Source: Ignavibacteriota bacterium
GTDB lineage: Bacteria; Bacteroidota; Ignavibacteria; UBA10030; CAVZMI01
Reading direction: 5' to 3'
DNA length: 64,000 nt
NCBI GenBank assembly: GCA_963776275.1
Contig: CAVZMI010000023.1
Location: 352,001 to 416,000, forward strand
The position numbers were made by a program, and so were the translations under genes. The number at the start of each line of letters is the position of its first letter. Positions within the stretch are counted from its first letter, which is position 1. The notes beneath the pieces are model-generated. The model worked only from the letters and a program-made list of their open reading frames with translations, did not search any database and was not told the DNA's origin. This document shows positions 15,944 to 31,341 of this stretch, in pieces.

Positions 15944-18325
15944 TTATTTTAACAGCATCATTTTCTTTGTCGATATAAAGTCATTCACATTCAAATGATA
16001 GATATACAACCCGCTTGAGAGATTGGCTGCATTAAACTCCACATTATATTTCCCGGGTTTTTGGTTCTGATTAACAAGAGTAGCGACCTCTCTCCCCATG
16101 ACATCGCAAATCCTTATTTTTACAAATCCTTCATGTGGTATCTGATATCCTATTGATGTCGTTGAATTAAACGGGTTTGGATAATTTTGGTTTAAACTGA
16201 ATTGCTTTTGTATAATGTCATCCGACTTTTCAACTGAAGTTGCAGTTTTGGTAGTAGCACTATCTTCTCTGCACAAAGCGGTACATCCGGTAGAATTAAC
16301 AGCCCTAACACGATACCAATATGTTCTGAGTGGATTAACGTTATTATCATTGTAGGTAGAAGTGTCAGGACTAACAGTAGTAATCTTTTTATAATTACCA
16401 CTATAATCATCGCTTCTAAAAATTTCAAAACCTGTTTCATTAGCAGAGTTATCCATCCAAGTTAGATTAACTTTACTTCCAGAAGCAGATGCAATTAAAT
16501 CACTTGGTGCTGAAGGTATGGTGAGGTTATCCAGGTAATTTATTATGGAAGCCTGTTCACCAACTGCCCAGCCGGTGTTTTTATCCAGGAAATAAGTTCC
16601 ATACAAACATTGTGAATTTGGATTTGTTATTTTTTGCCACAAATCTCCACCATCGGTTGTGTAGAGTGTAATACTTCCATAATCCGAATATGTTACACCA
16701 CCGACAGCCCAAAGAGTTTGGGCATCAATAATATGAAAATCAAGCAAGGTATAATTCTGTCCAAAATTTAAAATATCCCAACTAACTCCTCCGTCAGTTG
16801 TTTTTAAGATTGTACCTTCCCCTCCAACAATCCATCCAGTCATATTATTAAGGAACTTTATTTTATTTAAATCTACTGTCGTAGGCGTGTTTACTTTATT
16901 CCAATTGTTTCCGCCGTTGGTAGTTTTAAAAAGCCATCCAGAGGGACCAACAACATATCCGTTATTCGCATCTACAAAATAAACTCCTTTTAAATAGTAA
17001 CTACCGTATACATCTGTGAGAGTCTGTTCTACCCAAGAATTTCCACCATTTTCCGTTTTCCGGATTTTATCCCCAACAACCCAGCCTATTTGAGAATTAA
17101 GGAAAAATGAACTGTTAATATATTCATAGCTGGTAGTATATTTTAATTTCCATGAGTTTCCGCTATTTGTTGTTTTAAGTACAATATTATATCCTGTAAT
17201 CCAGCCGGTATTTACATCTGTAAAATAGACTGAAGTCAAATTATTATTGGTAGGACTTATCTGCGGGGCCCAGGTGTTTCCACCATTCTCGGTTTTTAAT
17301 ATTTTGCCGCTATCACCGACTGCAAATCCAACTAAAGGATCATTAAAGAAAATGCTGGATATTCTTCTATCTTGTGCAAGGTTTTGATAAGCTGGTAGCC
17401 AGCTGTCGCCAAGATTTGTAGTCTTAAAGATTTTTCCACCGGCACCTACAGCAAAACCTGCATTTGGAGTAAAGAAAACATCCATCATATTTTTAATAGA
17501 AGTTAATGTCCAAGAATTTCCACCATTTTGAGTACGATAAATACCATAATAGTTTGCTATCCATCCATTATTTTCATCTTTAAAAAACATTCCATAACCA
17601 GAACTGGTTACACCGCCAACTTCAACCCAAGTTGTTCCTCCGTTGGTGGTTTTCGCTACCTTTCCTCCGTCTCCAACAATCCATCCGGTTGTACTATCAA
17701 TGAATACAATTTCACTCCAGGAGTAATTATTGGGTACATCAAATAAATAAGTAAATGTCTGACCACCATTTGTTGTTCTACGTACCCCCCCAAATCCTAC
17801 CCAAAATCCTGTTGTTTGGTTAAGAAAATAAACGCCATAAATTTCGAAGGGTGCACCTTGATAATAACTCGTCCAGTTAGAACCTCCATCTGTTGTTGCG
17901 AGAATATAATTCCCGGCTCCAAGCCAACCATAATTTTCATTAATAAAATGAAGCGAGCTTATCCAATAATTATAACTGCTGGTCAATCGGGTCCAGGTTT
18001 CACCGCCATTCGTTGTTTTAAGAATTCTGCCGCTGTCACCAACTACAAATCCAACGTCAGCATTTAAAAATTGTACTGCGCTAAGTTCGGCAGTGGTATT
18101 ACTCAATTGACTGAGCCACGTTTGACCTCCATCGGTAGTTTTTAGAATGTAACCCATTTCCCCAACAGCCCACCCAACATCATCATTAATAAAGTGAATT
18201 CCATTTAAAATGTTTCCTTGAGGTTTTGGATTAATCCAAGACCAAGTTCCTTGTGCTTGAAGAATAATAGCATGAGTGAGGATGAATATTGCTATTAATA
18301 ATCTTCGTAAATTATTGATACACAT
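15944..18325 (-). CDS. YCF48/BNR-repeat double beta-propeller + FN3 + T9SS type-A CTD protein
   Basis: 13 (K/R/Y/A)T.(D/N)GG..W-type Asp-box repeats; P.APS.L...W.DNS.NE.GF FN3; QNYPNPFN...KKMMLLK; ATG 18325 with AAGGAGG SD; visibly AT-richer than its neighbours. Confidence 0.9.
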   Translation of the reverse strand: MCINNLRRLLIAIFILTHAIILQAQGTWSWINPKPQGNILNGIHFINDDVGWAVGEMGYILKTTDGGQTWLSQLSNTTAELSAVQFLNADVGFVVGDSGRILKTTNGGETWTRLTSSYNYWISSLHFINENYGWLGAGNYILATTDGGSNWTSYYQGAPFEIYGVYFLNQTTGFWVGFGGVRRTTNGGQTFTYLFDVPNNYSWSEIVFIDSTTGWIVGDGGKVAKTTNGGTTWVEVGGVTSSGYGMFFKDENNGWIANYYGIYRTQNGGNSWTLTSIKNMMDVFFTPNAGFAVGAGGKIFKTTNLGDSWLPAYQNLAQDRRISSIFFNDPLVGFAVGDSGKILKTENGGNTWAPQISPTNNNLTSVYFTDVNTGWITGYNIVLKTTNSGNSWKLKYTTSYEYINSSFFLNSQIGWVVGDKIRKTENGGNSWVEQTLTDVYGSYYLKGVYFVDANNGYVVGPSGWLFKTTNGGNNWNKVNTPTTVDLNKIKFLNNMTGWIVGGEGTILKTTDGGVSWDILNFGQNYTLLDFHIIDAQTLWAVGGVTYSDYGSITLYTTDGGDLWQKITNPNSQCLYGTYFLDKNTGWAVGEQASIINYLDNLTIPSAPSDLIASASGSKVNLTWMDNSANETGFEIFRSDDYSGNYKKITTVSPDTSTYNDNNVNPLRTYWYRVRAVNSTGCTALCREDSATTKTATSVEKSDDIIQKQFSLNQNYPNPFNSTTSIGYQIPHEGFVKIRICDVMGREVATLVNQNQKPGKYNVEFNAANLSSGLYIYHLNVNDFISTKKMMLLK

Positions 18326-18554
18326 GTTTACCTCCTTATGCAAATGCGTTTTCCGTAAACTTGTCGTTTGTTATTCTGGAATGATCTATTACTTGACTCA
18401 TTGGTGGTTTTAAAAATCAACAGCTGCATTTTTTGTGTATCGTTTCGGATCCTATAATACCAAAATCGGGTTGAATAAAAAGAGTAAGTTTTTTGTATAT
18501 CACTTTGCAGAAAGGTATAAAAATATGCGTACAGAGTCAACCTACGGTAACATC

Positions 18555-20360
18555 TCAAAACCGATGTGCATAACTCAGTGACGCCTGCGTTTCGTTGAAA
18601 TTGGCACCCGCGCCAGATCCAGTGACATCTGAATATCGTATATTAAGATTCACCGTATCATTGTCCCAGACTGGATAACTCGACTGCAGCGTGACGCTGA
18701 GGGTTTTTGATTGCGCCGAGTTTGCGTCGGATAACGTAAATGAATTATTTAATTTTCCTTCAAACATACGATAATTTACAGTGATGCCAAGTGTCGTTAT
18801 ATCATCCTTCTCACCGCTAATTTGAGTGCTTGTAACACCCCCGAACGGATTCACACTCAGATCCTCTGTCAGCACACTCGAAATATTGACCATCATCGTT
18901 GTTGCTTGGGAAGAAAAATCCTTCCGGAAAATATTTCCATCATCGGATGTCTGAAATGAACCGGTCAGAGTCAGCGTATTAGCTACCGTCCCTATAGGAA
19001 TTAGGAACGAAAGATTAGCCATATAGGATGCCATGGTATTTTCAATCTTCATGGTATCGTTTGATGCGTCGTTCGATAGACCATTCGCAACATATGCTAA
19101 CATGGCAAACATCCAATTCGTCGGCCTGACTCCGAGGTTGACCGAGAGTGTCGATCGCTGCGTTGTAAACCATTTTTGTTCGGCAAGATTATCCGACGAT
19201 TGATCGTATGTTGCATTCAGAGAGATTCCCCCATCGAACAATTGAGTAGTCAATCCCAGATCGAAACCCTGACGATCGTTGATCTGAGAAGCTAGCCCGA
19301 GCGAGGTATAGCTCGCGCCGATCCTTGTAAATCCTCCGCGCAATGAGAAGACCTGGAAATCCAGAACGACACTTGTTTTCAGCGCATAGTCAGCGGAAGT
19401 GCTCATGCGCAGTGTATAGAGATTTTTCAGCGATGAGATGGCCTTGTTTTTAAGTGTTGATGTATCGGAGATTTCCGCAGCATTCATATCGCTCGTAAAC
19501 ATACATCCAGCCGCCTCACCGCGGAACGTGAACACCCCGTCGAAAAGTGAAAAGCCCGTACTGATTCCTGCAACAAGATTTTCCTGCGGTACGGTCAGAA
19601 ACGGGTCATTCTGTGTCGTCGCATAGAGCGAGTCGATCACCGAAGTGCTGTCCTTGTGTGGAAGAGAATCTGGTTTCTCAGGAATTTTCAACGAACTCGA
19701 GTTATCCCGGGCACGGAGAACTGTAATGTCGAAGAAATCCCCTCCTTCTCGGCCGATTCCGATTCGTCCGGCGGCAATCACCCGCTCAAAGGCGGCATCG
19801 ACGGCGTTCCCCTCCACCGCACGATGGGTGAGTCCTCCGATGGCAGCAAAGCGGAATATTCCGGGATTTATCTCAACCCCGCCGCCTCTGATCGTAACTC
19901 CATTTAGTGTAAAATCGGATAAAGAACTGCTGAAATCGCCGATATCGGCCCTTCCCCATGACCATTCGGGATGGATGGCAATCTGATCGAGCGACTGCTT
20001 CGCGGAATTGCCTTCGGTCGAGAGAAGAAAATTGAAATTCATCGTAAGGGTTTTGAATAATGAAATTGTCGGTTGAAAATAGAGTCTTCCAGTTGCCGAT
20101 GGTCTGCGATCATCTATCCCGGACGCATGGTACAACTCACCATACATACCGATTTCGCCGCTGAAAGTGACTATTTTTTCCAGTAGCGACAAAGAGTCCG
20201 AAGTTTGCACCGCCGAGATCGGAGCCAACTGAAGGGAATCCGATGAACGATCGGAATTCACTCGCGCCGTATCAATTTGTGCATAGCTAATCGAACAGAA
20301 TAATGTGCAGAGAAGTCCTCTGATGATCCAATGCCGGAAAAAATCACTTGTTGTACACAC
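18555..20360 (-). CDS. Uncharacterised outer-membrane beta-barrel (usher-like)
   Basis: Signal peptide, alternating amphipathic strands throughout, terminal LSYAHRF (BAM beta-signal), GDF.....FTLNG..IRG motif. Confidence 0.75.
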   Translation of the reverse strand: MCTTSDFFRHWIIRGLLCTLFCSISYAQIDTARVNSDRSSDSLQLAPISAVQTSDSLSLLEKIVTFSGEIGMYGELYHASGIDDRRPSATGRLYFQPTISLFKTLTMNFNFLLSTEGNSAKQSLDQIAIHPEWSWGRADIGDFSSSLSDFTLNGVTIRGGGVEINPGIFRFAAIGGLTHRAVEGNAVDAAFERVIAAGRIGIGREGGDFFDITVLRARDNSSSLKIPEKPDSLPHKDSTSVIDSLYATTQNDPFLTVPQENLVAGISTGFSLFDGVFTFRGEAAGCMFTSDMNAAEISDTSTLKNKAISSLKNLYTLRMSTSADYALKTSVVLDFQVFSLRGGFTRIGASYTSLGLASQINDRQGFDLGLTTQLFDGGISLNATYDQSSDNLAEQKWFTTQRSTLSVNLGVRPTNWMFAMLAYVANGLSNDASNDTMKIENTMASYMANLSFLIPIGTVANTLTLTGSFQTSDDGNIFRKDFSSQATTMMVNISSVLTEDLSVNPFGGVTSTQISGEKDDITTLGITVNYRMFEGKLNNSFTLSDANSAQSKTLSVTLQSSYPVWDNDTVNLNIRYSDVTGSGAGANFNETQASLSYAHRF

Positions 20361-20385
20361 CGATGTACTCCTTCGTCAGGTATTT

Positions 20386-22416
20386 TTATGGACGAATCGA
20401 AATCTCCTTGCTTGGATTACTCTCCCGGCCATTTTTCCAGACCGTCGTTACGGTATAGAAATATAATTGCCCGCTCTTGACAGTGCGATCGAGAAATTCC
20501 TGTTTCTCGGACTTCACAGTTCCTACCACAACCTCTTTTCCATCAAGCTGTGTTCTGTGGATTTTGTATGACATTACATCGGGATGAGCGACGGCACCCC
20601 ATCTAAGCATAACTCCATCCGTGGTTTTTTCGACACGAATACCCGCTGGGGATAACGGCAGTTCAAGTAGAATATTTACCCGTTCGCTGGCACTGAGAGA
20701 ACTCACCCCATTGAAAAAATCGACTGACTGCACCGCATATTCATATATTTTCCCTTCACCGACACTTTGATCATCATAATAATTCAGGGTGTAGGGAAGG
20801 AGTGAATCGACAAGTTTCTTAAATTCCTGCCGTTTCGATCCCTGACCGGCATCTTCGCGCCTGTAGATATAATACCCCTTGATGGTTACATCTGACGCTT
20901 TCATATCCAACCAGTGCAATCGTACTTCTTTTCCGTCGACCACAGCCGTGAATTTCAACGGCGTAAGGGGCACAGTGGGTATCAATGGTCGTATTGAAAT
21001 CGTGTCGGCAAACTCCCCGAGGACATGACTTTTACTCTCACTCTTAATGGAATAGACATACGTAATTTCCCCGACCAGTACAGAGCTTGTGTCAATGTAT
21101 GTCCCTCCCATCTCTTTTTCTTTGAAAGGAATTAGAGGCGAGATCTCTTCGAGAGGATCGCTTCCTCCTTTTCCCCTGTACACATAAAATCCATTGACAT
21201 CTTTATCCTTCACTTCCCATTGAAGACGAACACCGTTTTTTATTCCCTCGCCGCGAAGGTTGACTGGCGGCAGAGGCATATCAGCACTACGATATAATCC
21301 GATCACTTTCGCCGTCGGCACCGATTCTTCTCCCAGCGGACCTGTCATCGTCATGTAATAATAGTATCGAACCATCGGTTGAACAGATTGATCGATATAC
21401 TCGGAATCCATAGGCGCGACGGTCGCTATCGGTTTGTATCCCTTATCCCAATCGTCACTCCGAAAAATCTTCAGGCTTTTGACCGCGGCGGGTTCATTTA
21501 TATGCCATCGCAGACGGAGTCCGCCGAGTTTATCAAGGCTTTCTGCTTTCAACCGGTCGGGTAGCCGTATTGCTGCGAAACTTGTTGATGAAATGACAAC
21601 GGTATCCGACGGGTTTCCTGTATTGCCGTAGAAATCCTTCGGTACGAGAAAATATGCATACATTTGTTTAATCTGGACTGATGTATCACGAACCGTGTAG
21701 TAGGCAGAATCCCGCCGTTGTAAAATAACACGCACAGGATAAACATGCATGAATGAAGCGTGCATCCCATCTTTTCTATATACATCCATGCTTGCAGGTT
21801 TTTTCCCTGCTCCCATCCCCCACGATATTCCAATCTGATTGCCCTGAGAATTTTTTTCCACAAGCCGTAAACGGGGATATTGAACCACCTGTGGATATGA
21901 GACAGCCGGTGACGTAAAAATAATCCTGATATTTTTAAAAGTATCAATTTTTGAAACCTGATATTCATATTGAACGCCTTTTTCCGCTGTCGTATCGAGA
22001 TAGCTCGTTCCTAATGCAATCCGAACCGGCAGTATTGCTCCCCAAGTCTTTAGCGAATCCATCCGTCTCCATTTTTCCACACGTTCCCATAACATTTTCG
22101 CTGGTATTTTCTCGATCGCCAGCGGTTCCGGAACAAGCGGCATAATTTCGCCGAGGCGGCCGGTAAATTCGTAAAGCGACTGTGCCGATACAACATCGGC
22201 TATCAGGTTCCACGATTTTTCGGTTTTTTTCTTACGCTCAATCCGATACCCTGCAACATTTTGCACAGGTTTTTTCGGTGAGACAATATCATTCCCAACA
22301 TGAATATAGATTCCTCGCGGACCGCCTCCCACAACCGCCTTGAGAGGTTGTTGTGCAGTTACGATACCGCAGACAAGGAAAACGGTTACGATGTTAATCA
22401 AGATTGATATTTTCAT
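20386..22416 (-). CDS. Exported multi-fibronectin type III protein (about 6 FN3 domains, no T9SS CTD)
   Basis: Signal peptide; repeated L.W.....GY.IYR....Y.D..V..G..Y.Y.V...D..G.ES..S. Confidence 0.85.
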   Translation of the reverse strand: MKISILINIVTVFLVCGIVTAQQPLKAVVGGGPRGIYIHVGNDIVSPKKPVQNVAGYRIERKKKTEKSWNLIADVVSAQSLYEFTGRLGEIMPLVPEPLAIEKIPAKMLWERVEKWRRMDSLKTWGAILPVRIALGTSYLDTTAEKGVQYEYQVSKIDTFKNIRIIFTSPAVSYPQVVQYPRLRLVEKNSQGNQIGISWGMGAGKKPASMDVYRKDGMHASFMHVYPVRVILQRRDSAYYTVRDTSVQIKQMYAYFLVPKDFYGNTGNPSDTVVISSTSFAAIRLPDRLKAESLDKLGGLRLRWHINEPAAVKSLKIFRSDDWDKGYKPIATVAPMDSEYIDQSVQPMVRYYYYMTMTGPLGEESVPTAKVIGLYRSADMPLPPVNLRGEGIKNGVRLQWEVKDKDVNGFYVYRGKGGSDPLEEISPLIPFKEKEMGGTYIDTSSVLVGEITYVYSIKSESKSHVLGEFADTISIRPLIPTVPLTPLKFTAVVDGKEVRLHWLDMKASDVTIKGYYIYRREDAGQGSKRQEFKKLVDSLLPYTLNYYDDQSVGEGKIYEYAVQSVDFFNGVSSLSASERVNILLELPLSPAGIRVEKTTDGVMLRWGAVAHPDVMSYKIHRTQLDGKEVVVGTVKSEKQEFLDRTVKSGQLYFYTVTTVWKNGRESNPSKEISIRP

Positions 22417-22426
22417 TGGTTTGCTC

Positions 22427-25400
22427 TCACTTTATATATGGAGTAATACTTTTTCCGTCACTTCCGAGATGTGCCTTTAGTCCCACGGTGATACATCCAC
22501 CCACTTCATGTTTATCACAGAATGTCCCATCGCAGTCCGAGTCGCATACTCCCCATCCGGCATACGCCGAGCCGCATAACGATATCGAAGCATCGCCTTC
22601 GACAAACCAGTCGCCATTGGTGCTGATCTGCCCTCCATATCCGGCAATCACAATAGCGGATGCTTTGAGTCCGGCACATGCAATTCCGATCGACCCGCCA
22701 ATTCCTGCTCCAGCTTCTCCGAAGATGTTTACTCCCGTGGAGTATGATATTCCGCCGTCAAAATTCATACCTATGCTTTGATCACCGCCGATGTTGACAT
22801 ATAACTCACCCGAAACGATGAAGAAATTGAATCCTAGACTTGGAATGAATGGCATTTGCATCTCGCCTTCGCCATAAAATCCCTTGATATGCGCCGGAAA
22901 TGCAGTGGGAAACTCACCTTTGTGTTGATAAATCCAGGAGAATTGGCCGAATAGATTTTTAATATGATCCGTCATGGGGTAATTGCCAAAAATCACAGCG
23001 GCCTGTCCGCCGAATCCTACAAGTTTCAGGTTTGCTCCGGCCAGGAAATACCACCCATCGTTATCAATCAACACCTCAGCAACACCTGCAACCTCTGTAG
23101 GTCCGAGATTGATTCCCTGACTGAAATCGACCGATCCGAAAAGACGGTGATTGACAAAATCATACGTGAGGCTGATATTTCCGAATGGTAAAGGAATATT
23201 TTTTACACCAACCTGTTGATTATTGGCAAGAATCTCACCATACACCGTGAAGGCGAGTCTGCCGGTGGCTCCTTCAGTTCCCGTCATGTCTCCGGCGAAC
23301 CATAGATTAGTCCAGGTACCGCTCTCCACATGCATATTACCGGCAATCGCATTCAGCTTCGATGAACTGTTAGCCGCGATATCAAGCGATTGTCCCGGAT
23401 CAATCCAGAGTGATGTCGAATCGGGTGTCCGGAATAAATGTAGCGTAAAAGCAAATTTCCCTGCTTCGGAAACCGCTCCTTTCGCGATAAATCCGTGTTC
23501 GTCAAGCGTTTGCGGATTATTTGCATTACCCGGAATGTCGATATGCACACCCTTTGTATCAAATTTGAAATTGATAGGATCGAACGAAAAGGCGATATTA
23601 TTATTGATGTCTTTGTAGTAATCAATCGACGTTGTTTTACCGCCGCCGTCAAGTGGAATATGAAGATCAAACGAACCTGGAATATTTACACGATTCGGAT
23701 AGACAACGATCTTGACCGGTGTGAACGACACTGCATTATAGAGTGTAATGGGCGGAGCATTAGGATCCGCAGCAAATCCCGTCTCCCCGTTACTCAACAC
23801 ATAAAATGAACCGAACGAAATTTTATCGCCTTGACTCATGCCGGGAAGCGTATTAATCATTGCACATTCACTCATCCCCGATTTCGGTATCACCATCAGC
23901 GACCAGTGCCCTTTCGGTTCATCAATACCTGCATAGGGGTTGTACACAAAACTTGCATCTCCGGTGATCACCAGAGGTACTATTCCACCCAGCGTCAAGT
24001 TTTTTAAATCAAAACTCGACTTCTCCGTTTCCAACTTTACCGGTGTGATCGGAAGGTCTTTTGTGAACGGAACATCCACCAGTCCGGTTTTTATCGCTCC
24101 GGTATGAAGCACCAGGCCGGAACCATTAAAGCTCCAATCACTGCTCACCACCTGCCATTTCTCAAGTTGAGCGGAAATTTCGTTGGTACTCTGAACACTC
24201 TCAACACTATTCGGAGTAATCACAATAACACCGACATCGAGATTTAAATCGGAGGGAGTTATTGTCGGTATGTTCGTATGAAGATGCGTAGCCAGTCTCA
24301 GTGCTCCAGTCGTCGCATATGATGTATTGGAATCAGCAACAGCGTTTTTATCGAATGTATGTAGAGTATAGCGGAGTGCACTGCCGCTGGCATCGACCAC
24401 GTTGAAGCCATCCGGAACCTGTGCAAGATCCGATTGAGATGCGGCAACAACCGGGACATTCATTCTCACGCTCATATTCGATGTTCCCGGAAGAATAAGC
24501 ACAATACTATCTTTCGGGAACGACACTGCCCCACCGGTACTGAACGATCCGGCATAAATCGCCACTTTCCCCCTAATCACACCTGAGCCGCTTTTCTTCA
24601 GATCCTCAACCAGCAATGTACCTGTTTTCCCATATTGGCTTACCGTACCGTTGAATGACTTCAAAATTTTTGTTATTTCGAGTACTTTGATATCCACCGG
24701 TACTACTCCGGCATCCGGTTGTGCTACCGGCACATTATTGCTATTTAATTTACTCCCCGGGCCAATGATGATGTCGTAAAATGTCAATGTCTTGGATGTA
24801 TCGATTTCAAATTGCATATTAGATGGCAGCGTGACGAAACGGCCCGATATCTTTGCTTTCGTTCCGGCTTGCGGTGTTAGCTTTGTAATTTCAACCGGCA
24901 AATCGAGCAGACGCGTGATATCCATGTCGTTGTAGACTTTCAGATGAAATTTCAGGGAATCGATTGGTACCCACATAGGTTTGCCTGACGGTTTTCCCTG
25001 CATTATAGCGCCGGGGGGATAGACATATATTCTTATCCCAGATTCCTCAACGTCGATATTTGCCGAGTCCCCGATCGTCCCTCCCTTCACTGCAAAGAAT
25101 GTGTGGATTCCTACAGGAACATTTCGCAATGTGTACGAGCCATTCGCTACGGTCATGCAGTCAACCTGTTCAACTTCGCCCGATCCTTCCTGTGCCATAT
25201 AGACATGCGCACCCTCCACAGCCTGATCCTTACCGACAAAGACCTTCCCGATTATACGGCCGGCTACCGGTAGATATACCCCCACCGAATGCCAGCCTTT
25301 CAAACACGAATCGGCTGTGGATACGAACTGGGTTTCAAAGTCCTGGTCTGCCGGACCCTGACCCGGATTTTGAAGCTTTTTGCATCGCTCTGGAAAACAA

Positions 25401-28400
25401 AATAAGCATGCCCGCCTATATCGGTGACCTGCGGCGCGACACCCGTGAGATTGAGAAACTCAACCTGTGCTCCCTTGACAAAAATAAGTTGTGAATTATT
25501 AGGTTCTTTTGCGATCGTGTTGACTCTTACATCAATTCTGTGAAGTTTCCTGTACGCGGTGAGCTTCCCTATGTTTTGATTTTGCTTGAAAATGTAGAGT
25601 GATGTATCCGAAATGATATACTTATCATGATTCACCGGTTCGATAGTTATGTTTTGCACCCCGGTCGGTGCCGGAAGCTCGAAAGTGTATTTCGTACATA
25701 CATATGTTTTCGCCGAGTATCCCTGTTGAGAGGATCCTATCGTAACCATCTTGGACTCTGCACATCCCGTCTTTATTTTCGCCCCTCCTTGAATTCCAAT
25801 GTATGTGTCAACCGGTACTCCGGTTTCATCAACTACTTCTCCGGAAATACTTCCTGCGGGGAAAATCGTGAGGGGATCGATAACTTGCTTCAGACCCTTA
25901 GAAAGCCTTTGAATGTAAGGGGGGGTCAGTATTGTATCCCGAAAGCCCATGCTATGACAGTAAATATAAAGCTTTCGATCAGTGCCCGTTTGGATTTTCC
26001 GGGAGATTATCAAACTTCACATATCCCGCCGAATCGGTTTGCTTATTCCAGCTTGACGATCCATCACTCAGGTAGGCCGTTACATTGGGTGCAGGCAATT
26101 TTGTGTCGCTCCGATAGATGTTTGCCGCGACATATGGTGGAAGCGGCTCCAGCTCGCAGAACATGTAATCTATATGCGGAGGATTTATCTGATAATCTTC
26201 ATTGTAGACCGCATGTTCCCCGTCACAGTTGTATGTAAACGGCACCCAGTATGTTTTATAATTGTATAACCCTTTCGGATCCGATTCCAGTAAGAGGAAA
26301 TATTTATCCTGTGTATTATTATTATCATTTTTCACCAGATTGGTAAATTTAATTCTTCCCTTCTGTTTTGTCTCCGGATCGATAGTCGTCACATCCTTTG
26401 CGATGATATCGAACGTATAAGCTCCATATTTTTTCGTCTTGGGAGTCCCTGCATATCCGCCGCATTCATCTGACGGGATCGTCAGCGGATGTTTCACCCG
26501 AAGAATGTATGCGTAAATATTATTCAATGGATTCTTTGTTTCTTTATCAAATGCAGCAACACGAAACTGGTACGCTCGAACCAAACAACATAGCGAACCG
26601 AAATCCTGAAAATTCAGAGGCTGGAGCTCAATATCGGCATAGTTGGGATTTCCCTCGCCGGGGCTGCAATAGTATGGGTTATCCAGGATGATTCGTGCCA
26701 CACGGTAGAGGCTTCCTTTGTATATTGTGGGAAATTCAGTAGGACCGGTCTTGAAGGTCTGATTAGTTGCTATGACTCCTATACTGTCGAAAAATGTCGG
26801 TGACATCGTCAGGTAGAATCCCACCCTTCCGGTCGAATCACTTGTCGATACACCAAGTTCCTGATTTGCATCAGAGCGATTCACAAGTCCTGTCACATCA
26901 GCAACTCCGCCGCCGCTTTTATGAAGGATATACTTTAATACCAGCCGTGCCCGAACACCAGCAAGAGGTTTATTACACGACCCGTTCGGAAATTTATATG
27001 TCAGATGTCCGGTAATATACGATGATAAATACTGAGGATTGATTTCCGTGTACAGAAACGGGAGAGGATATTCTTCAACAAACGTTGCATTATCTGTCTT
27101 ATCATAATTGAGCGGTGGATTCGGTGTCCCGTCAAATTTTATTGTGAGATCTGAGTAAGAAACCATTGCGATCCAACCTGGACTTTTAATTTCGAGTCTA
27201 TAACCGTCGAAGGGTTTACGATTCTGTACAAGACACGCAAATTGCACCTGCCCGCTCTCGACAGAATCCTTCGCTACCAGCGTCCAGCTTCCCGACTTCG
27301 GACGGGGGTCGAGTGGATCTCCTTCATCCTTTGGAAGATCCGGATAGGTAACAAGCCGGTAAAGATATGCAACGGTCCCTTTCTTTGCATGTCCTCCGGG
27401 TTGTGAGGGATCCCATATTTGAACCGTGAGATTGTACTGGCGGGCCTTAGCCATTAAAATACCAACATTGAGGTTCCCTTTGGGTTTAAACATAATGTCT
27501 GTACCCGGGCTGAGGTAATACGGACTCGAGACTATCACGCGTCCGGCACGATATAGATCTCCCTTAGTGAGCCCTTTATTCGGGACGTATATGTTCGTGT
27601 CTTTTGCAATAAGTCTTGTGCTGTCGGAAGTAATAAAATCGAATGAAAAATTTCCGTTACCGTCGGTTGTTGTCGATGCCAGTTCCTTACCCATATCAGA
27701 ATATGGGATGAAGAATCCCGGTTTCAGCACATAGGGAAGTCCGACTTTCGGGTGAAATATATATTCTACCAGCAATTTGATTGCCATATTGGCAAGTACT
27801 CGAGCCGGTCGACTCGATCCGGGCCAATTATAATGCAATATGCCCTGAACCCTTGTCAGTCCTGGCGGTTGAAGAAGAGGCAGAGTAAATGACGTCGACA
27901 TCTTTTTATATCTGAAAGTCCAGATTTCACTCTTACCATTATTTGCTGCGGCAGGTGTTCCATTCTGATCAAGCGCCTGAATCTGCCATGCGTATTGTCT
28001 CCCTATTTCAATTGGAAGTGCGCTGGGTGGGTACACAAGCATATTAATATTCGTGAGTATCTGTTCAAATTGAGGGACATTTGCAGATAATGCTTTCTCG
28101 GGCTGCTGTCCCTGAAGTACTTCACAGATTCGTATCGCATAGCGGATAGTCATTCCCGGCGGTACAAGCACCGGAGTCCATTGAAATGTTGGATATGCGA
28201 GAGAAACTGTATCCTTGTTTTGTGGCACAACAAGCTGCGGTTGATCCGGTAGGACTATGCTGAAGGACTTACAATCCTGGGTGAGCTGTTTTTCCTGTTG
28301 ATCGAGTACAGCGATGCAGAGAGTGTAGTCATCCTCAGGAAGGCGGCCGGATTTTTTTATGATAGAAGCAAAAGTACCATTGTAGATCGCCTCATTAATT

Positions 28401-28756
28401 TTTAACATTTGATTATTATGGAAATTCCAGGTAGCGGGTCCGGTGAGCTGCATAGGATTCCCTTTAATCGTAGCAACCTGACCGAACCGTTTACTCGTTA
28501 CAATGCCTCGGAATGTAATCGTCACCGTTTTTTTCTGAATATAGGATAAATTATAGGTAACGATCTGTGGATTATTCTGCCATTGACTCAGGTATGGTGA
28601 TGGATTCGGCATAATATTCAGAAAAGATAACCAGTCCGGACTCTGGGCAATAAGGGTACACTGAGGCACACACAGGAGTGACAGAATTGCCACGATGATA
28701 TAGAATGGGAGAAAACAGTGTGCCTTTCGCAGATACGAGATGATTTGGGAAATCAT
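22427..28756 (-). CDS. Giant exported protein (~2109 aa) with TANFOR-like N-terminus; split by compensating indels at ~25986 (+1) and ~25357 (-1)
   Basis: ORFs 25979-28756 and 22427-25303 share a frame and the 6330-nt span is divisible by 3; junctions read ...PNGTDRKLY... and ...RV(R)GPADQDFETQ...CLKGWHS; N-terminal P.PSPYLS...GRLPEDDY.LC...P.L..P...FQWTP. Confidence 0.75.
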
Positions 28757-28899: not shown

Positions 28900-31341
28900 T
28901 CAGCGCCATTGGATTTTCCAGACAGAATCAACAGTCATGTGAAAAACAATAGCTCCCTGCTCATCGGTTCTCTCAATGGGTATTGAGTTGTGTTGATAGC
29001 GCGAAATCACATCGACCGATGGATGTCTAAATTTATTGTTTTTTCCAACAGAAACAACTGCATGGGCTGGTTTCACGGTAGATATAAAGGGATCCGAGCT
29101 TGCGTTGATACTTCCGTGATGGGCTACCTTAAGTATCGAACTATGAAGAAAAACCCCGTAATACTCGCATAATTCTTTCTCGACAGCCTCTTCAGTATCA
29201 CCCATCAGCAGTATGGATGAGCGACCATAACACAATCGGAGTACAATCGAAGTGTTGTTAAGATTCGGCCGATCTAACTCTCTCACCGACTCAGAAAATA
29301 TACCATTTGGATGGAGAACGTACAATCGCGTGTTATCGAATGCATCTATCTGCATCCCTGAAGAGAGAAACTCTATAGGGATATTCTTTTCCTGAATGAT
29401 TTTCTGAAGATCAGTCAGCAGAGATGAGGGTAAATCGGTGCGGGGCATATAGATTTTCTTTACCGGGATTGATTCAATTACCGACAGTGCCCCGCCAACA
29501 TGATCGCTGTGACCATGAGTGAGCACAAACGCATCGACTTGCGTGATTCCTTTCCATTTTAAGAACGGGAGAATTACCCGTTGTCCCGCATCGGAATTAA
29601 ACGTCCGCGATCCCGAATCGATTAGTAAAATCTTCCCATCCGGATATTCTATTACCGCGGCATCTCCCTGACCGACATCAAGAAATGTCACCGTCACCTG
29701 CGGTGGAAATAAGAATGCTGCTGATCCGGGAGCAGGATAGAAAACGAAAATGTTCGCAACGGCAAGAAAAAGGATCAACCCTTTACGCTTCCACGATCCC
29801 TTCCACAATGAGAACACAATTGCGATGAGAAGATAGTATCCAACCGTAAGTAAACCTGTCGTTGTATGAACTTCAAGAACGGACCAGCGAAAGTGGGCCG
29901 CTATTGTAATAATTTTTAATGTCAAATATAAAAGCATATGCGTCGCTGCACCGGCGAGTACAGCACACCAGGAAGAAAAAATGCTGAGGACAACAACCAC
30001 AATACCCAGTGCAAGAGCGATATTTGCTGCCGGAACGACGACAACATTTGCAAAAAACGACACAAGAGAAATACGACCAAAATACTGTACAATTAATGGC
30101 AAGGTCCCCATCTGGGCAACAAGCGATACAATAAACAACTTGACAATGGGTGAAAGCCATCGCGTCAGACGGTAGCGCTCGAATATGGGAATTATTGCCG
30201 ATTCCATCGGGGAATAGAAAAGGACAAGCGAAATTACGGCTCCATATGAAAGCTGGAATCCAATATCAAAGAATTGCCGGGCATCGTACACATAGATGAT
30301 CAGTGCCGAGACTGCAAGCGCATTCATAATATTGGCCCGACGCTGGATTATGTTTCCCACAAGTAGCACAACGACCATCAAGGTTGCACGGACAATCGAC
30401 GGAGTTGATCCGGCAACGGCCATATAGAGTAAGAGCGTAAGAATGATCGCACACGTTTTCACAATTCTGTTCCCCGGGATAAAGCTACTCAGCGCCACAA
30501 CGATGAGCGCAACGAATGCAACGTTCAACCCGGAGACTGCCAGAATATGAACGACACCGGCATTGATGAACGAAGTCTGTACTTCTTTTGGAATCTCGCT
30601 CCTATCGCCGATTATAAGTCCTTTAAGAAATGCTCCCTCAACTCCACCGATTGTTGTATCGACGACACTCCTGACATAGTTCCGGATCGGCAGGATAATC
30701 CAGGATTTCAAGAGATTCCCTTCCTTTTTCTCAAGACATTGAATATCCTCCATTTCGGACACTGTCATGACAGCGTAGATATTATTCAACTCGAGATAAT
30801 TTCGATAATTGAATTCTCCCGGATTCCGTTCATGCCTCGGGACTTCGATAATGCCCCGAATCACAACTACATCACCGTAGCTCAGTCCATGATTTCTCAA
30901 AGTATCATCCCGTTTGTACCTGAAACTTACGATAACATCACCGTTAACCTCAGTTCTGATTGTATCATTGAACATGTCCGAGGCATGCAGGAGAAACGAG
31001 AGTCGGTCGTTGCGGATTTCCGGCTGTTCCGCGATCGTTCCTATCAAGATTCCCTGTCGCGGATGAGAGAGAAAGAATGAAATATGATTCCGGGGGAGCA
31101 GAGTCGTGTCAATACTGTACTTTGTCATCCCGATACATATCAGCACCAAGATGAGAAGGAGTGTCTGCAGATCTTTTCCATATCGATGTCGGATGATTCC
31201 AACGGTCAAATACACCAGGAGGATCATCACGGTCTCGATTGCGATAAGGAGAGAAAATGGTATAATAAGAAACCGTCCGGCGATGATTCCCGCCGTAATC
31301 CAAAATGCCAGACGAACTGCTGGTTGACGATTCCAATCCAA
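28900..31341 (-). CDS. comEC: DNA uptake competence protein ComEC/Rec2
   Basis: RNPGEFNY, HILAVSGLNV, GFQLSY, metallo-beta-lactamase DVGQGDA, THGHSDH, KVAHHGS, HP. Confidence 0.96.
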   Translation of the reverse strand: MDWNRQPAVRLAFWITAGIIAGRFLIIPFSLLIAIETVMILLVYLTVGIIRHRYGKDLQTLLLILVLICIGMTKYSIDTTLLPRNHISFFLSHPRQGILIGTIAEQPEIRNDRLSFLLHASDMFNDTIRTEVNGDVIVSFRYKRDDTLRNHGLSYGDVVVIRGIIEVPRHERNPGEFNYRNYLELNNIYAVMTVSEMEDIQCLEKKEGNLLKSWIILPIRNYVRSVVDTTIGGVEGAFLKGLIIGDRSEIPKEVQTSFINAGVVHILAVSGLNVAFVALIVVALSSFIPGNRIVKTCAIILTLLLYMAVAGSTPSIVRATLMVVVLLVGNIIQRRANIMNALAVSALIIYVYDARQFFDIGFQLSYGAVISLVLFYSPMESAIIPIFERYRLTRWLSPIVKLFIVSLVAQMGTLPLIVQYFGRISLVSFFANVVVVPAANIALALGIVVVVLSIFSSWCAVLAGAATHMLLYLTLKIITIAAHFRWSVLEVHTTTGLLTVGYYLLIAIVFSLWKGSWKRKGLILFLAVANIFVFYPAPGSAAFLFPPQVTVTFLDVGQGDAAVIEYPDGKILLIDSGSRTFNSDAGQRVILPFLKWKGITQVDAFVLTHGHSDHVGGALSVIESIPVKKIYMPRTDLPSSLLTDLQKIIQEKNIPIEFLSSGMQIDAFDNTRLYVLHPNGIFSESVRELDRPNLNNTSIVLRLCYGRSSILLMGDTEEAVEKELCEYYGVFLHSSILKVAHHGSINASSDPFISTVKPAHAVVSVGKNNKFRHPSVDVISRYQHNSIPIERTDEQGAIVFHMTVDSVWKIQWR

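Follow-up and report, generated by a model that had tools for sequence, protein, structure and literature searches.

We analyzed a window of 64,000 nucleotides from an Ignavibacteriota bacterium (contig CAVZMI010000023.1 of assembly GCA_963776275.1, positions 352,001 to 416,000 of the forward strand), and we report here on three tightly packed, co-directional genes on its minus strand, which encode, in this order, a giant protein, a protein of repeats resembling fibronectin type III (FN3) domains, and an outer membrane (OM) β-barrel. Ten nucleotides separate the stop codon of the giant gene from the ATG of the FN3 protein gene, and 25 nt separate the stop codon of the latter from the GTG of the barrel gene; the coordinates of the open reading frames (ORFs) thus bear out the arrangement and the gaps given in a preliminary description made from the DNA letters. 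That description also assigned Sec signals to all three products, and each was seen, by eye and with a hydropathy window, to begin with a hydrophobic N-terminus closing in 'AQ', that is, a putative Sec-type signal peptide. The parts of the module, in positions of the window, are as follows.

18555-20360, minus strand: barrel gene, 601 aa, GTG start
20386-22416, minus strand: FN3 protein gene, 676 aa, putative signal peptide and six repeats of ~100 aa
22427-28756, minus strand: giant gene as a whole, broken into three frames in this assembly
25979-28756, minus strand, frame -1: first open frame of the giant, 925 aa, with putative signal peptide, head and then CarboxypepD_reg-like repeat modules
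27887-28645, minus strand: head, giant residues ~38-290, two tandem Ig/FN3-like β-sandwiches
25357-25986 (about), minus strand: middle stretch of the giant, open in frame -2 alone
22427-25356, minus strand: last part of the giant (listed ORF 22427-25303, frame -1, 958 aa)

The giant proteins share a constant head

A phmmer search with the first frame of the giant against 1.84 billion representative sequences returned 3584 proteins at E≤0.001, 255 of them at E≤1e-30. Among the 150 matches listed, nearly all align to query residues ~25-290, here called the head, which sits at the N-terminus of matched proteins spanning 266-5070 aa; in a sample of genomes of the phylum, family members run to 6400 aa. 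The head is the only part common to the whole giant family. The body that follows it in the window (~1800 residues) has homologues only within the Ignavibacteria-type group, and giants from Zixibacteria, Gemmatimonadota and other lineages share the head alone with the window giant, the FN3 protein and the barrel persisting there. An AlphaFold2 (AF2) model of the head (predicted local distance difference test score, pLDDT, 90.4) consists of two tandem β-sandwiches whose Foldseek neighbors in the PDB are generic tandem FN3 pairs. Searches of Pfam, NCBIfam and PDB sequences gave no match to the head.

Few families were recognized in the bodies. Pfam matches to the giant include a weak CarboxypepD_reg in the first frame; the last part has one CarboxypepD_reg-like domain followed by ~870 aa of unknown fold with a Gly/Cys-rich tail, and it matches no PDB sequence. 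When 20 diverse family members were scanned, 12 matched no Pfam family, and only generic Ig-like, FN3 or CarboxypepD_reg domains were found in the others. In one 3428-aa member (G113:C130:40191-43247, minus strand), the second head sub-domain (profile positions ~165-280) is repeated six more times behind the head.

The giant had initially been labeled TANFOR-like, a label that did not survive closer searching. No NCBIfam family matched any of its pieces at E≤0.1, and across the whole genome the best match to the TIGR02542 hidden Markov model (HMM) had an E value of 0.34 (12 bits, against a cut-off of 67) and lay on contig C22. With no match in the genome above the cut-off, identity with TANFOR (TIGR02542, T_forsyth_147, 145 positions) is ruled out.

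The barrel and the FN3 protein

The AF2 model of the barrel (pLDDT 81.6) contains 26 strand elements, with no plug and no extra domains. Its putative signal peptide is followed by ~35 residues that are disordered in the model. One face carries long conserved extracellular loops, the other has turns of 2-5 residues, and the chain ends in Phe. The closest fold in both structure searches was MtrB (6r2q_B; Foldseek E 2.4e-11; Z 20.4 over 443 aligned residues), and other matches included TonB-dependent transporters and porins (Z 15-18.6, barrel part only) and ushers (Foldseek E ~3e-8, Z 12.5-14.6). The first characterization of this protein as usher-like is therefore weak: ushers are among the fold matches, but the barrel has no Usher or PapC Pfam match and no plug or periplasmic domains, it has 26 strands, and MtrB is closer.

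By sequence, the barrel belongs to no Pfam or NCBIfam family, its only match being a sub-threshold one to OMP_b-brl (15.8 bits, against a cut-off of 28.7), and the profile of the family matched no PDB chain. None of 75 homologues has a Pfam domain or a functional name, those that are named being entered as 'hypothetical protein'. The family is nonetheless present in 159 of the 201 genomes sampled from the class.

In the FN3 protein, a pattern search located five tyrosine-corner-like motifs ~100 aa apart, at residues 150, 253, 351, 558 and 652; a sixth, near 455, was missed by the search and is seen by eye only. The copy in the window has no Pfam fn3 match even at E≤10, but homologues exceed the fn3 (PF00041) cut-off of 25 bits, namely P0087 (32.6 bits), P0092 (28.0 bits) and P0098 (81.7 bits, in 5 stretches). 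The term multi-FN3 used previously is thus backed by the homologues and by the ~100-aa spacing of the motifs, not by a Pfam match of the window copy itself, and, judged from these sequences, 'six FN3-like repeats' is a fair description of the 676-aa protein. Its length stays at ~670-750 aa across phyla, even where the body of the giant is unrelated.

The three families occur together across phyla

Distribution of the module was analyzed in 79 loci obtained through the head, which represent the best 80 of 184 confirmed relatives and lean towards the window's kind. By label they comprise 54 loci from Bacteroidota/Ignavibacteria, 7 from Zixibacteria/GN15, 6 from Gemmatimonadota, 3 from Calditrichota, 2 from WOR-3 and 7 from others; Kryptonia is also among the labels. 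Records of metagenome-assembled genomes labeled Ignavibacterium album and Melioribacter sp. (L085, L022) are among those with the module. HMMs of the three families located the barrel in 58 loci, the FN3 protein in 53 and both in 44. Forty-seven loci were assessable, having at least 2 kb upstream and at least 4.2 kb downstream of the giant. In these, which come from Bacteroidota/Ignavibacteria, Zixibacteria, Gemmatimonadota and Calditrichota, the barrel was present in 45, the FN3 protein in 38 and both in 36. The preliminary description had named co-occurrence and synteny as a check on its proposal of a single system, and the three families do co-occur far beyond chance and across phyla (barrel in 45/47, all three in 36/47). 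The genes are ordered either giant, FN3 protein, barrel, as in the window, in the closely related locus L012 and in many other loci, or barrel, giant, FN3 protein.

In five genomes that were fully scored, a same-strand barrel lies within 3.5 kb of 26 of the 39 head genes, and 25 of the 31 barrels are paired with a head gene, the barrel being directly upstream in 22 cases. Five genomes from other classes of the phylum gave 11 strong barrel matches, 10 of which adjoin a head gene of 1944-4068 aa. Of 301 genomes sampled from the phylum, 120 contain the head, many of the weaker matches being partial and confined to the second sub-domain. SprA, of the type 9 secretion system (T9SS), is encoded in all five module-bearing genomes tested, and distribution therefore cannot separate the module from T9SS.

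An HMM scan of the genome from which the window comes recovered the copy in the window (head, E 4.6e-119; FN3 protein, E 0; barrel, E 1.8e-226). There are five head genes, on contigs C23, C5, C25, C27 and C19, and three barrels adjacent to a head, on C23, C5 and C19. The barrel on C19 is paired with a head-only protein of 291 aa.

Short head genes also occur apart from barrels. A partial sixth head match in the same genome (C20:258381-259457) covers the second sub-domain only, and it is one of several barrel-less proteins of ~300-360 aa that are head-only or have a partial head, the others being G097:C62:1164-1973, G097:C14:89069-89848, G113:C90:25746-26426 and G086:C1:827311-827988. The five fully scored genomes have five such short head genes, only one of which adjoins a barrel. 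Spare plugs and remnants are candidate roles for these proteins.

Head and barrel are fused in some genomes and are predicted to form a complex

In three genomes the head and the barrel are encoded in one ORF, in the order signal peptide, head, barrel.

L093:498-3062, minus strand: head-barrel fusion, 855 aa
L094:3303-5891, plus strand: head-barrel fusion, 863 aa
L091:3928-6789, minus strand: head-barrel fusion, 954 aa

We modeled barrel residues 57-601 together with head residues 36-292. Modeling of the barrel with the N-terminus of the giant, which the preliminary description had suggested as a check, gave scores of 0.91, 0.90 and 0.91; the best of three controls scored 0.00. Such a score is reached by 116 of 157 solved complexes and by 2 of 215 mismatched pairs, counts that are only a rough guide because custom alignments were used. 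The runs share at least 84% of their contacts, and the partner reaches a pLDDT of at least 83. On the barrel side, the contacts involve alternate residues of strands 16-26 and loops L1-L10 (strand map from the AF2 barrel), and on the head side almost all of the second sandwich (residues 169-290) and one face of the first. Most of the head's contacts are with extracellular loops and the outer halves of strands; one periplasmic turn, residues 415-416, is also touched. Since eleven strands are touched through alternate residues and the loops are touched round the rim, the head of the model can only be inside the lumen, and we consider it very probable that the two proteins form such a plug-in-barrel complex. 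Gene adjacency, the fusions and the complex model all tie the barrel specifically to the N-terminus of the giant.

This placement is a model prediction. No solved complex is homologous by sequence to the barrel or to the head, and the score is therefore unlikely to reflect recall of a relative. Solved usher-pilin complexes do show an Ig-like domain in a large barrel, and some carry-over from these into the model is possible. The orientation of the head does not follow from the contact list by itself, and the linker in the fusions, ~45 residues as estimated from HMM coordinates, is long enough for either.

Two further loci are of note for the fused forms. The fusion at L091 has another head-bearing giant behind it, which poses the problem of how a single pore accommodates two heads. 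On contig C6 of the window's genome (C6:107779-110589, plus strand, the same as L092:3780-6590), a barrel homologue that matches positions 83-541 of the A1 profile (E 2e-46) is extended at its N-terminus by ~250 aa of another kind, not recognized by the head profile; this protein could represent another type of plug plus barrel.

Frame breaks in the giant gene of the window

The giant was originally described as a single protein of ~2100 aa. This length agrees with intact orthologues of 2108-2112 aa, but in the window the gene is read in three frames. The three pieces align in order to the 2108-aa intact orthologue P0103: the first is 75% identical to residues 1-925, the middle stretch in frame -2 is 75% identical to residues 925-1131, and the last is 80% identical to residues 1113-2108. 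Homologues of the middle stretch also occur at the corresponding place in the paralogues on contigs C5, C25 and C27 of the same genome. In a record from a metagenome-assembled genome (MAG), L012, which is 95.5% identical in nucleotides over 10.4 kb, the giant gene is one open frame, and the coding region of the window differs from it in frame by exactly two 1-nt insertions or deletions.

25983, minus strand: first frame break, a single base that relatives lack, with TGA next at 25979-25981
25355-25359 (about), minus strand: second frame break, one base missing from a minus-strand G run, after which frame -1 is regained

Contigs of relatives of the window from four public sequencing runs were compared at these sites; no run accounts for more than 0.18 of the sampled window words, so that none of the four seems to be the window's own sample, and no RNA run was among those listed. 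The intact version of the second site is present in the contigs of 4/4 covering runs, and the extra base at the first site is absent from the contig of the one covering run. Paralogues in the window's genome are broken as well: the barrel is split on C5 (14394-16257), the giant is in three frames on C25 (1400-7782), and both the giant and the FN3 gene are split on C27 (29595-37940). In the related MAG, all three module loci (L012-L014) are open.

The breaks could be real, in which case a head-bearing fragment of 925 aa would be the only product of the giant gene and the module would be a decaying paralogue. The two breaks in the window fit this view, as do those in the paralogues on C5, C25 and C27 when the loci of the related MAG are open. 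We nevertheless regard a dead copy as rather unlikely. The out-of-frame stretch retains 75% amino acid identity, compared with 75-80% for its flanks, which indicates no decay; only one base is affected at each break, and all the relatives' contigs compared agree with the intact frame; and the breaks cluster in a multi-copy family, which suggests trouble in assembly or polishing. Because the out-of-frame stretch is as conserved as the sequence on either side of it, an assembly error is probably the cause and likelier than decay. The occurrence of breaks in several paralogues suggests either that assembly and polishing struggled with a multi-copy family or that a wave of inactivation specific to this genome has taken place. 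Whether this copy is dead does not alter what the module is, and either answer is compatible with every reading of the mechanism given below.

A platform that may anchor and export a variable giant protein

We propose, with a probability of about one half, that the three genes encode a conserved and uncharacterized platform, a plug in a barrel, for anchoring, and probably exporting, a variable giant protein. The head would be a constant docking module lodged in the barrel, where strands 16-26 of the wall and the long extracellular loops would hold it, and the ~1800-residue body would be variable cargo anchored by the barrel. Most probably, the barrel lets the body out to the cell surface as a long fibre rich in β-sandwiches. 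The six-FN3 protein is assigned to the platform because it is conserved with the head and the barrel and not with the body; as an accessory, it may serve as a strut, a stalk or a chaperone. That the body is exposed at the surface is most probable in view of the size of family members (to 6400 aa), their β-sandwich make-up, the predicted contacts in the extracellular half of the barrel and the repeated sub-domains of G113:C130, which are compatible with body domains that fit the pore. The location of the body, its passage through this barrel and the part played by the FN3 protein are what we infer from these patterns. The roles given in the preliminary description, with the FN3 chain as adaptor or chaperone and the giant as passenger or filament, are likewise interpretive.

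Several observations weigh against the proposed platform. The head, being N-terminal, would reach the periplasm first, and export of a C-terminal body through the very pore that the head plugs is awkward. The fused head-barrel forms look like plugs inserted from the periplasm, and the bodies carry no domain that would mark them as extracellular (12 of the 20 scanned have no Pfam family). Conservation does not single out the predicted interface: mean values for interface and remaining residues are 0.542 and 0.510 in the barrel (p 0.064) and 0.556 and 0.541 in the head (p 0.31), and contacts account for only 8 of the 40 barrel residues with the highest conservation, equal to the background share of 0.198. 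There is thus no clear enrichment, and interface conservation gives the predicted complex no support. Co-occurrence is incomplete as well. In the five fully scored genomes, 13 of the 39 head genes and 6 of the 31 barrels are unpaired; ~9 loci lack the FN3 protein beside giant and barrel; and the giant and FN3 loci on C25 and C27 of the window's genome have no barrel nearby. Finally, the giant gene of the window itself is frame-broken at two sites.

A bolder form of the proposal, which we advance tentatively and consider doubtful, is a new pathway of OM export and anchoring, in which a barrel of ~26 strands that is neither of the Omp85 nor of the usher type passes a chain of β-sandwich domains to the cell surface one at a time. 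The N-terminal head would be kept in the lumen as a stopper, the six-FN3 protein would be a machine part of fixed length, and the fused head-barrel proteins would be pores that plug themselves until a giant's head pushes the plug aside.

The module might instead be a tether within the envelope, with a structural or trans-envelope role, in which the head plugs the barrel from the periplasm, the body hangs in the periplasm and the FN3 rod is a periplasmic strut. Plug domains of TonB-dependent transporters and of ushers enter from the periplasm and have a layout N-terminal to the barrel like that of the fusions, where the head is directly N-terminal to the barrel, and the head enters the periplasm ahead of the rest of the giant. 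CarboxypepD_reg-like domains, present in the giant, also form periplasmic N-terminal extensions of SusC-like transporters. The FN3 protein keeps a length of ~670-750 aa across phyla, as a spacer would, and the head also contacts the periplasmic turn at residues 415-416. However, members of 4000-6400 aa, if they are chains of β-sandwiches, would be many times longer than the periplasm is wide, and we know of no periplasmic proteins of this size. Most contacts of the head, moreover, are with extracellular loops and outer strand halves. A purely internal tether therefore appears improbable to us.

We rate lower still a gated channel for nutrient uptake rather than protein export, in which the barrel would be a large pore for a solute or polymer, the head its gate or plug and the body a capture or sensing device. 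The fusions and the head-only partner on C19 do combine plug and barrel without cargo, and the fold matches of the barrel include TonB-dependent transporters and substrate-specific porins (Z 16-18.6). Directly upstream of the module in 8 of the 79 loci there are Reg_prop/Y_Y_Y sensor kinases accompanied by LuxR-type regulators, and this type of sensor is known from glycan-utilization loci of Bacteroidota. But no TonB box and no Plug or TonB_dep_Rec Pfam match was found, the 980 ORFs flanking the loci include no conserved transporter, hydrolase or binding-protein family, and the bodies have no recognizable binding or catalytic domains.

Export of the giant by T9SS through an unrecognized signal, with the barrel acting only as a cognate surface anchor in the manner of PorP/SprF, is very improbable: lineages encoding SprA are so far the only ones known to have the module (5/5 genomes tested), and genes with a T9SS C-terminal domain (CTD) neighbor ~20 of the 79 loci and lie directly downstream in the window, but none of the three proteins has a type-A or type-B CTD, PorP/SprF or PorV match at E≤0.1, the conserved element is N-terminal rather than C-terminal, and the CTD-bearing neighbors are heterogeneous (CotH, DUF5122 propeller, BNR) and occur at about the frequency estimated for chance.

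Neighboring genes and regulation

The genes on either side of the module in the window are the following.

15944-18343, minus strand: downstream of the barrel, 799-aa protein with a BNR/YCF48-like propeller, an FN3 domain and a T9SS CTD
28900-31341, minus strand: upstream of the module, ordinary ComEC/Rec2-type competence protein (Competence, DUF4131, Lactamase_B)

The downstream gene is on the same strand as the barrel gene, at a gap of ~210 nt, and its CTD matches Por_Secre_tail (E 6e-10). Three other secreted proteins of the window had been credited with a CTD and the giant and FN3 proteins had not; the latter part holds, as neither has a Por_Secre_tail or TIGR04183 match, and a CTD was confirmed on this one neighbor. 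In related loci the ComEC/Rec2-type gene does not belong to the module.

When the 980 flanking ORFs of the 79 loci were clustered, one cluster, joined by the T9SS CTD, covered 20 loci and was heterogeneous (CotH, DUF5122, BNR); response regulators were found in 19 loci and Reg_prop sensor kinases in 8. A fourth obligatory component was rejected, the clusters in the flanks being only regulators and heterogeneous CTD proteins. The presence of CTD proteins around the module is probably due to chance, given how common such cargo is.

A sensor kinase of ~1000 aa of the Reg_prop/Y_Y_Y HisKA_3 type lies beside the module in L039, L044, L046, L055, L066, L079, L082 and L068, and in seven of these loci (all but L068) a LuxR-type response regulator is directly upstream on the same strand. 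In some Ignavibacteriales the module may thus be under dedicated two-component control. No pair of sensor kinase and LuxR-type regulator is present in the window. Between positions 18200 and 29100, promoter-like sites numbered 25, compared with 19.6 ± 4.2 in shuffled sequences, for a sigma-70 consensus that may not fit this phylum, and terminator-like sites numbered 8, compared with 10.3 ± 3.3; these counts are uninformative about transcription units.

Implications

If the proposed platform is real, a superphylum of diderm bacteria mounts or exports very large proteins without secretion types 1, 5 or 9 or the chaperone-usher pathway. It would give a role to three families that have no curated annotation, namely the barrel (159/201 genomes), the head (3584 representatives) and the six-FN3 partner, and would explain why giant 'dark' ORFs of 2000-6400 aa begin with the same 250 residues. 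The hosts of these giants are mostly uncultured lineages of soil, sediment and groundwater. The predicted architecture would add a third kind of 26-strand sheath barrel to LptD and MtrB. At its most far-reaching, the proposal amounts to a new 'type' of OM secretion that serves thousands of unannotated giants from Bacteroidota and Ignavibacteria to Zixibacteria, Gemmatimonadota and Calditrichota.

Comparison with known systems

The module matches no described secretion or envelope system; it is new as a system, with a function proposed from its parts. The preliminary description had called it a candidate undescribed system, and we likewise found no matching described system in Pfam, NCBIfam, the sequences of the PDB or the full-text literature. 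No description of the module was found in that literature, within a scope that leaves out subscription-only sources.

Several systems known from T9SS-bearing and other bacteria resemble it in part. SprB/SprF pairs a T9SS cargo with a type-B CTD and a cognate PorP/SprF-like barrel, and the module is similar in placing a giant Bacteroidota protein beside its own OM barrel in T9SS-bearing lineages. It differs in having no CTD and no PorP/SprF match, in the N-terminal position of the conserved element and in the size of the barrel (~600 aa, 26 strands). Status as T9SS cargo is ruled out, since neither giant nor FN3 protein has a PF18962, TIGR04183 or TIGR04131 match at E≤0.1, in a CTD search that does detect the neighbor at 15944-18343 (E 6e-10). 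The barrel matches 0 NCBIfam families, which rules out membership among the PorP/SprF and PorV/PorQ barrels. A TonB-dependent transporter is also ruled out, as there is no Plug (PF07715) or TonB_dep_Rec match and the barrel has 26 strands instead of 22 and no plug. In type 1 secretion adhesins, the retention module of LapA stays in the LapE pore and tethers a giant repeat protein. The module would resemble this in having a folded N-terminal module in an OM pore that tethers a giant repeat protein, but LapA lacks a Sec signal and depends on an ABC transporter with a TolC-like channel, whereas all parts of the module have putative Sec-type signal peptides and the pore is a single β-barrel. TANFOR is similar in that very large Bacteroidota proteins have a conserved domain at their N-termini, and it has no sequence match to the giant.

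Two-partner secretion (TpsB/TpsA, such as FhaC/FHA and CdiB/CdiA) likewise places a dedicated OM barrel beside a very large Sec-exported protein that has a conserved N-terminal recognition element of ~250 residues and is otherwise variable. The module differs in several respects. Its barrel has ~26 strands and no POTRA or Omp85/ShlB Pfam match, whereas TpsB has 16 strands and POTRA domains; the N-terminus of its giant is two β-sandwiches, not the β-helix of two-partner secretion, and has no Haemagg_act match; its head is predicted to be in the lumen and not on periplasmic POTRA domains; and it has a third, six-FN3 component. Membership is ruled out by the lack of ShlB, POTRA and Haemagg_act Pfam matches and by the 26 strands.

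The lumen of ushers such as FimD and PapC holds a plug or a pilin, and in the predicted complex the head would similarly be a folded Ig-like domain held in a large barrel; the fused head-barrel forms resemble a self-plugged usher. Differently from the chaperone-usher pathway, there is no PapD-like chaperone, the cargo is one giant polypeptide and not polymerized subunits, and the barrel has 26 strands with no internal plug or periplasmic domains, compared with 24 strands and plug, N- and C-domains in ushers. With no match to Usher (PF00577), PapC_N or PapC_C at E≤0.1, membership is ruled out.

In MtrCAB, MtrB (6r2q), the best fold match, forms a sheath of ~26 strands round a partner protein and belongs to a three-gene unit; the module likewise has a barrel of ~26 strands in a unit of three genes, with the head as the predicted partner inside it. 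Identity with MtrB in sequence is ~12%, and the partner is a pair of β-sandwiches instead of a multihaem wire; a cytochrome conduit is ruled out, there being 0 CXXCH motifs in the pieces of the giant, the intact orthologue P0103, the FN3 protein and the barrel. LptDE is a 26-strand barrel with LptE lodged in its lumen, and the predicted complex is alike in having a separate protein in the lumen and loops that fold onto it. The difference lies in the partner, which here is the end of a giant protein and not a small lipoprotein. Membership in LptD is ruled out, as there is no LptD/OstA Pfam match and no N-terminal jellyroll in the model; LptD was not among the best 50 matches of either fold search, which we do not count as evidence. 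Overall, and by analogy, the module is nearest in its logic to two-partner secretion and nearest in its picture to ushers, LptDE and MtrAB.

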